A stretch of 64,000 bases of DNA from Candidatus Fermentibacter sp. (lineage in GTDB: Bacteria > Fermentibacterota > Fermentibacteria > Fermentibacterales > Fermentibacteraceae): assembly GCA_030373045.1 (NCBI GenBank), contig JAUCPW010000018.1, positions 17,078-81,077 on the forward strand. Direction: 5' to 3'. Below, piece by piece: positions 51,028 to 58,603 of this stretch. Under the pieces are notes generated by a model. The model searched no databases. It saw only the letters and a list, made by a program, of their open reading frames with translations, and was not told the origin of the DNA. How positions within the stretch are numbered: position 1 is the stretch's first letter; the number at the start of each line of letters is the position of its first letter. The translations under genes and the position numbers were made by a program.

Positions 51028-54000
51028 GTGTTTTCGGGGGGAGAATCCTTGATCCTTCTGCTTCTGGCGACAGCCCTGGCCCTGCCTGAGGGGCAGGCAG
51101 GCGTGCTCTCCGACGTCCGGTCGGGGTCCGCGGGCTTCTCGGCCACTGTGGAGGTCCCCGGGCCGTCATTCCGGTCCGACGGGGACGTCTACTACCCCGT
51201 GATCCCCGGCTTCTCCTCCTGGGCGGTCGAAGGCGGCCTGGTCAGGCCATGCATCGTCTTCTACGTGCCGCTACCCCCTGGCGCGTCGCCCGAGCTCGCC
51301 TTCACGGTCGAGGACAGGAGGGAGGCGCCCCCCGCCCCGCGGGGAAGGCCGGCGGTCTCTCCGCACCTCGAAGGCACGGGCCTGTCCACCGTCACGGTCT
51401 ACGATGACCGGGCATCGGCACCCCCTCCCGCCGTGGTCGAGATGTCGGTCGTGAGGGCAATGGGTGTCGATCTGGCCCAGGTCAGGATCAGCCCGTTCGA
51501 CGGGGAGGGATACGGCGACTATGCCGGATCGGTCGGCATCTCCCTGGAATGGGGGGGAGCGCCCGGCTCGGAGCCCCTCTCCGACGGCCCACTTTCGCTG
51601 ATATGCCCCGGGGGCGTGGTATGGTGGCCCCACAGGGCGCAGAGAACGGCCGCCAGCCCCTTCTGGGGGATGCCCTGGGCGCGGATCGAGACCTCGGTCG
51701 GCGGCTGCCACGTGCTCACCGGCGCGATGCTCGACTCCGCCGGAGTAGACATCCTCGGAGCCGACTCCCAGACCCTGCGGATGCTGACCGGCCCCGGTCT
51801 CATGTTCGACCTGGAATGGCGCGACGAGACGCATGCCGCATCCGAGACCTCGATACTCGTCCTCGACGGCGGCGACGGCTCCTTCGACGCCGCGGACAGC
51901 ATCCTGTTCGTGGGCAGGGCCCTGTGGCGCTTCGAGCCTTCGCCGGAATCGACGCCTCCGCTCGGGCGCCTCTCGCACAGGTACGACACGCGGAACGTCT
52001 ACTGGCTGACCTGGGGCGGCGAGCCCGGCCGGATGATGGAGAGCGTACCGTCCTCCCCGGACGGCTCCCCGGCATGGCCGGGCGACCTCCTCGCCCCCCT
52101 CTTCGTCGAACAGGAGGCCTTCTGGCTGCCGGGCCACGAAATCGAGACCGGATGGGTATGGACCGAGCTCTCCACGAGCTACGACTCCTACTTCCCGTTC
52201 ATGGCCGAGAGGGTCGGGGAGCCGGCCGACATCCTCCTGTCGTTCGTCCCGGACGAGAATGTGACGGGACAGCTGAGGATCACCCTCAACGGCGACTCGG
52301 TGGGCGGCTGCTCGTTCTCGGGCTACCCTCCCCCCTTCACCGTGCTCCTCGAGGACGTCGGGATCGCCGAAGGATCCAACACCATCATCACGCACCTGAC
52401 CCTTACGGGCGGCAGCGGGAGCATCTACTTCGACAACATGACCGTCTCGTACCCCAGGCTTCCCGCGGATGCCGGCGGGGCCGACCTCCTGCCTTCGGGC
52501 GCCCCCGACGGGAGGTACACGCTCTCGCTCGGCCTGGAAGGCGACGGACCTGCCAGGGTTTTCGACTGCTCCAGGCACTATGCGGTCGACCTGCTCGACG
52601 GCGCCTCCGATCAGGGCGGCACGGTAAGCCTCTCCCTCGACATCGGGCAGGAATCGCGCCTGCTGGCAGTCCGCCCCGGCGACCTCAGGACGCCCAGTTC
52701 CATCTCCCCCGCCGAACCGGGCAGGATAGTCGGCACCCTCGACGGCGCCGACGCGGTGATCATCGCGGCGGACATCCTCGCCGAAGCCTCGGCCCCTCTC
52801 GAGGCGCTCATGGAGGCGGGGGGGCTCCAGGCGGAACTCGTCACCCTGGGCGAGGTCTACGACGAATTCGGCCAGGGCGTGGCCGATCCCGGAGCAGTGA
52901 GGTCGTTCATATCATGGGCCCTGGACACGTGGGACCCCGCGCCATCCGACTTCATCTTCGTTGGCGACGGGCACTACGACGTGCTGAACCGCAACTCCCC
53001 CGAGCCGTGCCTCTTCCCGCCGTGGCTGAAGCTCGGCAACTCGGACCAGCTCTTCGACGACTTCTACGTCATGACGACCCCCGGCCAGTTCCTGCCGGAG
53101 GCCTCCCTCTCGCGCATCCCCGCCGACTCCCCTCAGGACGTGTCCGTCTTCGTCGCCAAGGCCGCGGCCTACCGCTCGGGAGATGCCGCGGGGGCCTGGA
53201 GCGACAGGATACTCCTCACTGCGGACGACGAGTGGGGAAACGGTACCCCGAGCGAGACGTGGCACACGTACACATGCGAACTGCTGGCGGACAGCTGCAT
53301 CTCTCCGATGTACGACAGGGGCAAGTTCTACCTCATCGAGTACCCCTGGCCCGAGAGCGGCACGCATCCCTTCAAGCCCGAGGCCCAGGAGGACTACGTC
53401 GAAGCCCTTTCCGAAGGCTGGCTCGCCGTCCTGTTCTTCGGGCACGGCTCGCACGACCAGATCTGCCACGAGAAGCTACTGGTCAACAGCGACATAGCCC
53501 GGATCGACAACGGCCCCAGACAGCCCGTGATGGTCTTCGCGAGCTGCGACGTGGGGAGCTTCGAGCTCGTCTCCGCCGACTGCATGTCGGAGGAGTTCGT
53601 CCTGAACCCCGGCGCCGGGGCCATAGCGACCATCGGGGCCACCCGGGGAACGAACGCCAACGAACCGCTCTTCGAGGACTTCTGCTCGATGCTCTTCGAC
53701 GGGACGTCGGCCACCGGCACCGGGCAGGCCCTCTGGGCGTCGAAGCTGCTGAACCCGTTCCAGAACTCCTACTACTACGTGCTCTTCGGAGACGGGACGA
53801 TGAGGCCGATGCGGCCGGCATCCGGAACCCAGGTCGCGCTCGGCGGCGACGCCATTCTCCGCGGCAGGGTGAATCCCCTCGAGGCCTCGTACCCCTCGGA
53901 CTGCCTGGCCAGGGTCCGTGTCACCGAGAGCGCCGCCTGGACGGAGTACACCTGCCTTGGCGGAAACCTGATCGAATACCTGAAGTACGGCTCGACGGCC

Positions 54001-57800: not shown

Positions 57801-58603
57801 CCGTGACGGCGGGGACGTTCGGGCTCGACTGCATCCTGCCGGTGCAGTCGGTCGCCGGACCTTACGGGCGCGCCGGAGGCTCGGTGCCCGCTCCTTCCGA
57901 CGTGGATGCCGGCGGGGCTGATCCGGTGCCCGTGGCGCAGGGGACTCCCGCCGGAGGCGACTACGAGGGCCCGGAGGCCGAGATGTGGATCGCAGGCCAG
58001 GAGGGCGTGGAGCACCCGGAGGTCTCCGGCGGGGCGACACTCAGGGCGACGATCTCCGATCCGTCCGGCATATGCTTCCTGGGCGGCCCGGGGAGACAGC
58101 TCACCCTGTTCGTCGATGCCACCGGCATCGACGTCGGCGACTACTTCTCCTACCTGCAGGGGAGCACCACCGAAGGGCTCCTGGAGTGCGGCACCGGGTC
58201 GCTCTCCGTCGGCGAGCACAGGCTCATCCTCTGGAGCTTCGACGGCGTAGGCAACGGCTCGAGCGACACCCTCCTCGTTTCCGTGAGGGAGGAGGGCAGC
58301 GTGTCGATCTCGGAGGCCCTCGTCTACCCGAATCCCGGAAACGGCCTGCGCTGCTTCAGTTTCAGACTCTCCGAGGACGCGGCCGTGAGGGTTTCGATCC
58401 ACACCATCGCAGGCAGGTGCATCAGGACCATCGACGCGCAGTGCTCGCAGGGATACAACCAGATCCTTTGGGACGGCATGGACGCCGACGGCGACGAACC
58501 CGCCACGGGTGCCTACGTCTACTTCATCGGGGCCGTGACCACGGGGACCTCGTCGTTCGAGAGCGAGACCGGCCTCTCCGGAGTGCTCGCGGTCGTGAGG
58601 TGA
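54857..58603 (+). CDS. giant peptidase C25 paralogue with FlgD-Ig / T9SS-type CTD
   Basis: ATG 54857 with GGAG upstream (MKALACLAFICAAARG signal peptide); …MLFIADDEWGQG…VCYLGHGAAEQIAHE…FWATCDVGHFD; CTD LVYPNPGNGLRCFSFRLS…VSIHTIAGRCIRTID…ILWDGMDADGDEPATGAYVYFI…. Confidence 0.7.
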   Translation: MKALACLAFICAAARGSVVLVSDGPGGCTLLFETSPAAVATTGSDHLFDGMGILFEPGRPMLPVQRVYVPVPPGSEPVLEYAVLARSSDPSLAREARRAPALEGSGLSTVEVEAPPLPGPSRNVELVGVIPLAGFSFAAIDIYPWLGGADGSYASSVRLDLSWDGSRARPGRPTRLARLVCGFDMPFYRLGSSRADSPFWGLPWARIETSGTGGYEVTCSELAGAGCDVEGVQSASLAMFSGSGEMFGFDPAEEHSLSPVAIQVLDGGDGIFDGGDRIRFVGLALSRWVPYASGAAWVPHRWDDTNTYWLTWGGEPGRRMETLPAVPDGSPQYGNYMVETLVEQESQWDPEHEQTTGWVWTTMSPGDGFDVPYTLGYEPAGIGELNVRLCAPDTEAIHYGIYLDGDLLAEGSWSGGGVETVTISGIAIPGNGTVRVENTTSEDHDLFLDWVRISAPAAPGQTAGMMLMPGVERQGLFTLSTGPFDSSSSLYLLEDSMPVAALSGFEISGSAASFSLEVSVDTRILAVGGGDWLSPDSISPAGPGRLVGTVTGADILIVTPESLADELWGLLSFYASMGLECEVATTREIYDEFGQGVADPGAVRSAVRWAMDSWTEPPSGVLLVGDGHYDPLGHTTSVPSLIFPWSSLGFNDILVDDRYVMAHEDADLPELPIARLPVQTGAELLTCTAKLLAQSSGENQGAWTNRMLFIADDEWGQGDNYDELYHTVDTERLAEEMAPRRIERVKFYLIEYPWPPSGTHPKKPEAREDLLALLSEGFGAVCYLGHGAAEQIAHEGAMYGSDVSLLENGGRLPVSFWATCDVGHFDGTGDDAIAERLLLHPAGGGLASVAATRGCSGPSNYSLCRAVFDSLFTHPDLTVAEALWQCKVDQSGSYFTNNRGYILFGDLTTRLPLPDGEAGFAVEGDTLRTGETNHVSGTCRQGAGSAFVTVMESSSPVTYICRLGGEIDYLKYGGAAFRGSAPVTAGTFGLDCILPVQSVAGPYGRAGGSVPAPSDVDAGGADPVPVAQGTPAGGDYEGPEAEMWIAGQEGVEHPEVSGGATLRATISDPSGICFLGGPGRQLTLFVDATGIDVGDYFSYLQGSTTEGLLECGTGSLSVGEHRLILWSFDGVGNGSSDTLLVSVREEGSVSISEALVYPNPGNGLRCFSFRLSEDAAVRVSIHTIAGRCIRTIDAQCSQGYNQILWDGMDADGDEPATGAYVYFIGAVTTGTSSFESETGLSGVLAVVR

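Follow-up and report, generated by a model that had tools for sequence, protein, structure and literature searches.

The question raised by this locus is what two very large, adjacent cysteine peptidase genes of the C25 family do in a member of Candidatus Fermentibacterota. The genes, here called A and B, lie in a stretch of 64,000 nucleotides (nt) of Candidatus Fermentibacter sp. (assembly GCA_030373045.1, contig JAUCPW010000018.1, positions 17,078 to 81,077 of the forward strand), which is referred to as the window. An earlier note, made from the sequence alone, had described them as a recent tandem duplication of gingipain-family proteases devoted to secreted proteolysis, and in GenBank both are labeled only "C25 family cysteine peptidase". 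According to the comparisons reported below, A and B are probably paralogous enzymes of the PorU type, kin of the T9SS (type IX secretion system) sortase, and not newly duplicated digestive proteases. PorU is the only sortase-like enzyme known in Gram-negative bacteria, and research on it has been confined almost wholly to Bacteroidota.

Organization of the Gene Pair

The features of the two genes, with the evidence for each in brackets, are the following (C-terminal domain, CTD; open reading frame, ORF; immunoglobulin, Ig; carbohydrate-binding module, CBM).

51028..54810, + strand: gene A, putative PorU-type C25 peptidase (ORF; Pfam C25; NF033707; protein P0016 is 100% identical)
51103..51651, + strand: A, pro-domain resembling the gingipain Propeptide_C25, residues 26-208 (29% identity to B; hhalign)
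51652..52755, + strand: A, N-terminal beta domains of the PorU type, residues 209-576 (NF033707; profile against 6ZA2; 40.8% identity to B)
52756..53805, + strand: A, C25 catalytic domain, residues 577-926 (Pfam; translation; column conservation)
53443..53445, 53545..53547 and 53644..53646, + strand: A, active-site codons of His806, Cys840 and the signature Arg873 (translation)
53806..54552, + strand: A, Ig-like beta-sandwich domains that follow the catalytic domain, residues 927-1175 (41% identity to B, whose counterpart aligns with PorU)
54553..54810, + strand: A, T9SS-type CTD, residues 1176-1260, and stop codon (FlgD_ig; Por_Secre_tail; 55% identity to the CTD of B)
54811..54856, + strand: A-B spacer of 46 nt, with a GC-rich hairpin and GGAG 5' of the ATG (sequence)
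54857..58603, + strand: gene B, putative PorU-type C25 peptidase of 1248 amino acids (aa) (ORF; Pfam C25; NF033707; phmmer; AlphaFold2; Foldseek)
54914..55441, + strand: B, pro-domain with the gingipain pro-domain fold, residues 20-195
55442..56521, + strand: B, N-terminal beta domains of the PorU type, residues 196-555, among them a CBM36/35-like jelly-roll at roughly 380-500
56522..57586, + strand: B, C25 catalytic domain, residues 556-910 (Pfam; conservation; translation)
57212..57214, 57314..57316 and 57413..57415, + strand: B, active-site codons of His786, Cys820 and the signature Arg853 (translation)
57587..58336, + strand: B, post-catalytic Ig-like domains, residues 911-1160 (all-beta in a confident model; aligned with the C-terminal domains of PorU)
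58337..58603, + strand: B, T9SS-type CTD, residues 1161-1248, and stop codon (FlgD_ig; profile against 8GLJ_D)

The longest ORF of gene A runs from a GTG at 51028 to the stop codon at 54808..54810 and encodes 1260 aa. A TTG at 51049, with GGGGGGAG upstream, yields the 1253 aa of NCBI MDM7992409.1 and is likely to be the better candidate start. Gene B lies in an ORF of 54794..58603 (+), and its start is most plausibly the ATG at 54857, which opens the 1248-aa protein MKALACL... belonging to the cluster of MDM7992410.1. Look-ups of the exact A and B sequences with the starts chosen gave no match, and the gene context was taken from relatives in their clusters. A scan for promoters and terminators gave nothing above the expectation from shuffled sequences, and no terminator was detected in the A-B spacer. 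Neither the GC-rich hairpin of the spacer (z -0.75) nor the one upstream of A (z -0.84) folded better than shuffles, and both were dropped as candidate regulatory elements.

When both proteins were compared by BLASTP, 490 of 1205 positions were identical (738 bits), and from about residue 70 onward the two sequences aligned colinearly as far as their C-termini. This resemblance exceeds chance by far, and the identity, which the earlier note had left to be calculated, was 41% overall, with a minimum in the pro-domain (29%) and a maximum in the CTD (55%). All of the motif blocks quoted in that note were found in both A and B (SPFWG.PWARIETS, ADDEWG, GHG...CDVG, YLIEYPWP and EFGQGVADPGAVRS), and its description of two neighboring same-strand paralogues 46 nt apart was verified at the level of the ORFs and the spacer. 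The same is true of the intact catalytic dyads (His806/Cys840 in A and His786/Cys820 in B). Profile searches did not miss Peptidase_C25 in either gene, since Pfam detected it at residues 577-926 of A (2.5e-57) and at residues 556-910 of B (1.4e-61).

The C-terminal sorting domain of the FlgD_ig type was likewise recovered, with 26.8 bits in A, just below the Pfam cut-off of 27 bits, and 29.2-31.4 bits in B. The C-terminus of A additionally gave a weak Por_Secre_tail match (15.5 bits), and positions 1161-1207 of a family profile built from 77 members matched the solved T9SS sorting domain 8GLJ_D. No match to Peptidase_C25_C was found by Pfam in A or B. The order of domains in both proteins is a signal peptide, a gingipain-type pro-domain, a full multi-domain PorU body and a T9SS CTD.

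Kinship With PorU Over the Mature Protein

The NCBIfam model of PorU (NF033707) matched A with 358 bits over residues 217-1240 (profile positions 7-1076 of 1095) and B with 364.5 bits over residues 204-1229 (from profile position 7 to about 1080 of 1095). A phmmer search with B returned one solved relative, the PorU of Porphyromonas gingivalis (6ZA2, 3.1e-20). When the family profile was searched against the PDB, the same structure was matched with an E-value of 3.6e-171, profile positions 198-1252 lying on chain residues 27-1154 of 1156, and at the level of sequence profiles this alignment spans the entire mature PorU. Structure prediction, which the earlier note had suggested for the N-terminal regions, was run on residues 20-1170 of B and gave a confident AlphaFold2 model (predicted local distance difference test, pLDDT, 91.6; predicted template modeling score, pTM, 0.89). 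Its top Foldseek match was again 6ZA2 (E-value 5.5e-45, 1119 columns, template modeling score 0.44-0.47), the gingipains ranking far lower (1e-18).

Hence, the assignment of the pair to gingipain-type secreted proteolysis was not borne out: A and B align end to end with PorU, and the gingipain architecture is found only in the third C25 gene that the earlier note had correctly placed at 8126..10333. The gingipain order, Propeptide_C25 followed directly by C25, Peptidase_C25_C and CTD, is present in that gene and not in A or B. The T9SS CTD is shared with the P. gingivalis gingipains RgpB and Kgp, also of family C25. Unlike these, A and B have PorU-type beta domains, about 360 residues in all, between the pro-domain and C25, a post-catalytic region of the PorU type in place of Peptidase_C25_C, and the PorU-signature arginine.

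With the PorU of P. gingivalis (PG0026; 6ZA2; NF033707), A and B have in common the C25 core, the His/Cys dyad, an arginine of the Arg722 type and a T9SS CTD of their own, but the identity is only about 16%. PorU is a single protein in P. gingivalis, whereas Fermentibacterota have the tandem pair and a third paralogue. The hosts also differ (Fermentibacterota versus Bacteroidota), and A and B are not beside porV. A second PorU-like family of NCBI, PorU2 (NF052324, "putative T9SS sortase PorU2"), was considered and rejected, as A and B gave weak local matches to its catalytic part, with 63 and 60.5 bits, partial coverage and a cut-off of 450; a literature search on PorU2 retrieved only unrelated text. 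The Gram-positive sortases (C60) are comparable by analogy only, through a Cys/His/Arg active site and the transpeptidation to a surface amine proposed for PorU (PMC4560394). Their fold and family are unrelated to those of A and B, and homology is not claimed.

A Gingipain-Type Pro-domain

Pfam found nothing in the first 555-574 residues or so of A and B, which explains why some 600 N-terminal residues had seemed unaccounted for by known domains. This region can now be divided into a gingipain-type pro-domain (about residues 20-195) and the PorU N-terminal domains (about 200-555). The N-terminal profile of the family was aligned by hhalign with Propeptide_C25 regions at a probability of 95% (E-value 2.4e-8; 68% against the gene at 8126 alone), and the family profile also matched the pro-domain chain of Kgp, 5MUN_A (3e-6). 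Furthermore, one outgroup member, P0080, exceeds the Pfam threshold for Propeptide_C25. Residues 20-555 of B were searched against 1.84 billion representatives, a search biased toward its query, and 548 matches were obtained at E<=1e-3; within this same query-biased set, 80 of the 82 full-length matches with an intact dyad carry some 100-250 residues before the PorU body.

A Third Paralogue Linked to porV

Besides A and B, a third clade of paralogues, called U, was found in the phylum (examples being P0070, P0067, and the members at loci L011 and L015). Its members have the same length, domain order, N-terminal extension and dyad as A and B, and the clade is the sister of A+B, from which it differs by its location beside porV, by the loss of the signature arginine and by seven fixed positions. 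U genes always adjoin a PorV gene (PF19572), in the order YggS-DivIVA-U-PorV-M6-like T9SS cargo, and five genes without an assigned function come next. This arrangement was found in L007, L008, L009/L010, L011-13, and L015-20. The U-PorV locus is present on high-GC contigs (0.67-0.69) and in the high-GC relatives L009, L010, and L015-L020. PorV genes are widespread across the phylum. One metagenome-assembled genome contains genes of both the A type and the U type, as indicated by the NCBI locus-tag prefix common to P0268 (CSA37_00345, A-type) and P0277 (CSA37_09610, U-type).

The location of porU beside porV is usual in Bacteroidota. In the nearest outgroup, Krumholzibacteria (P0081), porV also follows the PorU-like gene; the porV-linked position is thus taken as ancestral, and A and B as relocated duplicates. 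Tandem duplicates of U itself are present at L008:9984-18209 (79% identity) and at L009:10001-17621 (65%, L009/L010). These independent and younger events imply that PorU-like genes have been duplicated in tandem repeatedly in the phylum.

Additionally, a conserved block was observed downstream of U-PorV (L015:11008-21008, also in L007, L009, and L011). It begins with the gene for a T9SS cargo that is M6-like and of the "inactivated metalloprotease" kind (NF052323, 258 bits) and continues with genes for proteins of about 222, 555, 235, and 1040 aa without Pfam matches; a BamA-like gene comes next. The protein of 1040 aa, near porV in L015, has a weak local match to SprA/Sov (24 bits), and the block may represent a divergent T9SS core, as far as the sequences suggest.

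Age and Conservation of the Pair

The closest homologues of A and B all belong to Candidatus Fermentibacter, Fermentibacteraceae, Sabulitectum, and Aegiribacteria. In the genome-contig scan made with a single query sequence, the near-identical locus L005 was the sole match. A neighbor-joining tree resolved the clades A, B, and U with bootstrap values of 100, 96, and 100, respectively, and supported A+B with 99 and A+B+U with 100. The order of genes, with a divergent LolC/E-like permease upstream, A, a SIR2-family gene in some lineages, B, a 390-aa tetratricopeptide repeat (TPR) protein and a pyruvate phosphate dikinase, is kept in L001 (a 95% relative), L004 (a 66% relative, on a 2.5-Mb contig), L014, and L006. 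Of these, L004, L006, and L014 represent distant, low-GC members of the phylum; L006 is a Sabulitectum locus (GC 0.49), whose second gene is the orthologue of B (41% identity to B and 34% to A). The SIR2-family gene, of 245 aa, lies between A and B in L006:13660-14397 and L014:5267-6004 and is absent from the window, while at its position L004 has only an ORF of 62 aa. From its presence in both L006 and L014, the 46-nt spacer of the window is deduced to be the derived state.

The ratio of nonsynonymous to synonymous substitution rates (dN/dS) against L001 was 0.23 for A and 0.15 for B, and about 0.28 against L004, with values of 0.06-0.07 in the housekeeping neighbors. Both genes are under purifying selection. 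They go back to an ancient duplication and have been neighbors throughout Candidatus Fermentibacterota.

The TPR protein (58641..59813, +), which always lies 3' of gene B, showed a weak helix-turn-helix similar to sigma-70 region 4 or TFIIB. It is 52% identical in the Sabulitectum locus L006 and under strong purifying selection (dN/dS 0.07).

Catalytic Dyad and Signature Arginine

In the alignment columns, the His/Cys dyad was invariant in the 26+17 sequences of the A clade, the 14 of the B clade, and the 21 of the U clade. A further residue, Arg722, located 32 residues past Cys690 in PorU, was described by Gorasia et al. (PMC4560394) as conserved in PorU orthologues and absent from gingipains, and was put forward as a sortase-like third residue. 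No mention of Arg722 in connection with PorU was found in the literature beyond that original proposal. In the phmmer alignment, R853 of B fell on R720 of the PorU chain, which corresponds to Arg722, and R873 is the equivalent in A; in both proteins the arginine sits 32-33 residues after the cysteine.

The distribution of this residue sets clade U apart. It is kept in 39 of 43 A sequences, 14 of 15 B sequences, and 10 of 11 outgroup sequences, and in none of the 24 U sequences, where the flanking G-A-T-x-x-T...N is conserved despite the loss. Of 82 wider representatives whose dyad is intact, 56 have it. In two genomes one member of the pair lacks the arginine and its partner retains it: L014 has R in B with N in A, and L006 has R in A with G in B. 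Seven positions are fixed as identical in A and B and differ in U, including residues of the EFGQGV, DDEWG, and YPWP motifs, and at the 90% level no position distinguishes A from B. The pattern of the arginine suggests, although speculatively, that A and B rather than U have kept a transpeptidase chemistry.

In 3 of the 11 outgroup PorU-like sequences (P0078, P0079, and probably P0082, the third not having been identified individually) a serine replaces the catalytic cysteine (...TAASQVG...), with the histidine and the signature arginine kept. The same substitution is present in 5 of 89 wider representatives. Such variants would be either inactive or dependent on a serine nucleophile.

Proposed Function and Alternatives

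In P. gingivalis, PorU is itself a CTD protein that retains its CTD and works with the partners PorV, PorQ, and PorZ; its Cys/His dyad cuts the CTDs of cargo proteins, and the new C-terminus is joined to an amine of anionic lipopolysaccharide (A-LPS) or of small molecules (PMC10202324; PMC11285876). It also forms an inhibitory homodimer and removes the pro-domains of gingipains (PMC10202324). By comparison with this system, A and B would be exported by Sec and would then cross the outer membrane through the T9SS by means of their own CTDs. They would stay latent until removal of the pro-domain, in the manner of gingipain zymogens, a mechanism that would replace the dimer-based latency of the P. 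gingivalis enzyme. At the cell surface they would cut the CTD off T9SS cargo, which would then be released or joined to a surface glycolipid at an amine of the latter. Within the window, the candidate cargo comprises the protease at 8126..10333 and two propeller proteins with CTDs. Since two catalytically intact copies have been kept in addition to U, a division of labor, by class of cargo or between cleavage and anchoring, is suggested. A more specific version, which we hold to be doubtful, is that the PorU job is split over three paralogues, all of them pro-domain zymogens, with U acting only as a CTD signal peptidase or a docking subunit and A and B in transpeptidase anchoring to a surface glycan. 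If this split were true, a pro-domain-bearing PorU would be ancestral and the dimer latency of Bacteroidota a later invention. No paper joining Fermentibacteria with type IX secretion was found in the literature.

Several points weigh against the assignment of A and B to the PorU role. Neither PorV nor U genes were found within the 64-kb window by tblastn, and the pair is flanked not by porV but by the LolC/E-like permease and the TPR protein; U, which does lie beside porV, could hold the canonical PorU job and leave A and B another role. Both proteins miss the NCBIfam equivalog cut-off of 420 bits. Moreover, the pro-domain is a trait of secreted gingipain zymogens and not of characterized PorU, the function of Arg722 is a proposal by sortase analogy, and the tree of 93 sequences was built by neighbor-joining only. 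Three of these points, namely the lack of linkage to porV (as opposed to U and the Krumholzibacteria P0081), the pro-domain, and the scores under the cut-off, would also fit a different role, in which A and B are T9SS cargo on a PorU-like scaffold, that is, foraging endopeptidases made as zymogens, processed by U and then anchored at the surface or released. The dN/dS values of 0.15-0.28, above those of the housekeeping neighbors, and the seven positions that distinguish the pair from U, several of them in catalytic-domain motifs, would agree with such a role as well, and it stands close to the "secreted proteolysis" of the earlier note. Nevertheless, U has the same architecture with the same N-terminal extension, so that the pro-domain cannot tell cargo from machinery, and since the porV-linked U also falls short of 420 bits (343.5 and 326.3), the cut-off appears to be tuned to Bacteroidota. 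The PorU model in fact scores A and B slightly above U (358 and 364 versus 326 and 343 bits), the PorU-specific arginine that gingipains lack is kept by A and B and not by U, and the whole PorU body of about 1050 residues is conserved, well beyond the C25 core. A cargo role was thus considered possible, if rather unlikely.

The pair might also work as a single functional unit, either an obligate hetero-complex or an activation cascade in which one copy strips the pro-domain from the other or regulates it. By analogy, the dimerization of P. gingivalis PorU and its stripping of gingipain pro-domains (PMC10202324) would be precedents, and the strict co-conservation of the neighbors with no terminator between them, the absence of residues that tell A from B as fixed differences at the 90% level, and the single arginine-bearing member in the pairs of L014 (B) and L006 (A) are compatible with it. 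Against this stand the full catalytic apparatus of both copies in the window, the SIR2 gene that splits A from B in some lineages, and the U tandem pairs of L008 and L009, which arose without any sign of complex formation; we regard such an obligate unit as decidedly improbable. Least credence of all is given to a recent, largely redundant tandem duplication whose copies are now drifting apart. Adjacency, common strand, equal length, and colinearity had led the earlier note to propose a recent event, but it is refuted by the orthologue pairs of L004, L006, and L014. The copies are only 41% identical, each has orthologues in distant genera (bootstraps 96-100), both are under purifying selection, and their catalytic residues are invariant. 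The PorU-type assignment is therefore retained as the probable one.

Other Genes of the Window

The remaining features of the window that may be connected with type IX secretion are these.

8126..10333, + strand: protease of gingipain architecture, 735 aa (Propeptide_C25 32 bits, Peptidase_C25 180 bits, Peptidase_C25_C 32 bits, Por_Secre_tail 22.5/29 bits)
25576..27813 and 35329..37491, + strand: two paralogous Reg_prop beta-propeller proteins of about 720-745 aa (signal peptide; Reg_prop 58-63 bits; T9SS-type CTD)
27810..34379 and 38150..43908: surface-polysaccharide cluster beside the two PorZ-like propeller genes

Judged from its sequence, the product of 8126..10333 is probably a T9SS cargo and not a PorU paralogue, and as such a likely substrate of PorU-type enzymes. 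It is the only true gingipain-like protease of the window. Immediately upstream and divergent lies a gene of 690 aa (5955..8027, -) with an N-terminal patatin-like phospholipase and POTRA/BamA-like matches.

The two propeller proteins, whose C-termini read ...LAVVR and ...LALVR, may be PorZ-like partners of A and B. The PorZ model matched 25576..27813 and 35329..37491 with 33.5 and 79.7 bits, over the C-terminal 150 residues or so only and with a cut-off of 260.

The polysaccharide cluster contains genes for a FemAB/Acetyltransf_6-like protein, a weak match to glycosyltransferase (GT) family GT4, a GT2 (EpsD-like), MurB, RmlB (418 bits), Wza-like and GNVR/Wzz-like proteins and a Wzx-type flippase, and two unannotated genes of membrane-protein size. 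The first PorZ-like gene and the FemAB/Acetyltransf_6-like gene (38-43 bits, a weak match) overlap by 4 nt at the stop of the former. From its gene content, the cluster could make the glycan to which cargo is anchored. It fits cell-surface attachment, but the connection is circumstantial because no synteny of the cluster with A/B was found in other genera, including Sabulitectum. A linking-sugar pathway of the Wbp/Vim type was considered for the cluster and set aside, since only the weak FemAB/Acetyltransf_6 match and generic enzymes of the exopolysaccharide (EPS) type were found, in a non-syntenic location. The remaining genes of the window are housekeeping genes.

Significance

Two features set this family apart from characterized PorU: the gingipain-type pro-domain, and a set of paralogues that includes a porV-linked copy without the signature arginine. 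The presence of the pro-domain on PorU homologues ties the origin of PorU to gingipain-like zymogens and implies another mechanism of latency. The set of A, B, and U also indicates that PorU can persist as a stable group of several paralogues. With the arginine kept in A and B and lost in the porV-linked U, this group constitutes a natural experiment by which the cleavage of CTDs could be told apart from the anchoring of cargo. Finally, the assignment of the pair to the PorU type corrects an annotation by which the proteolytic capacity of these bacteria of anaerobic digesters would otherwise be over-counted.

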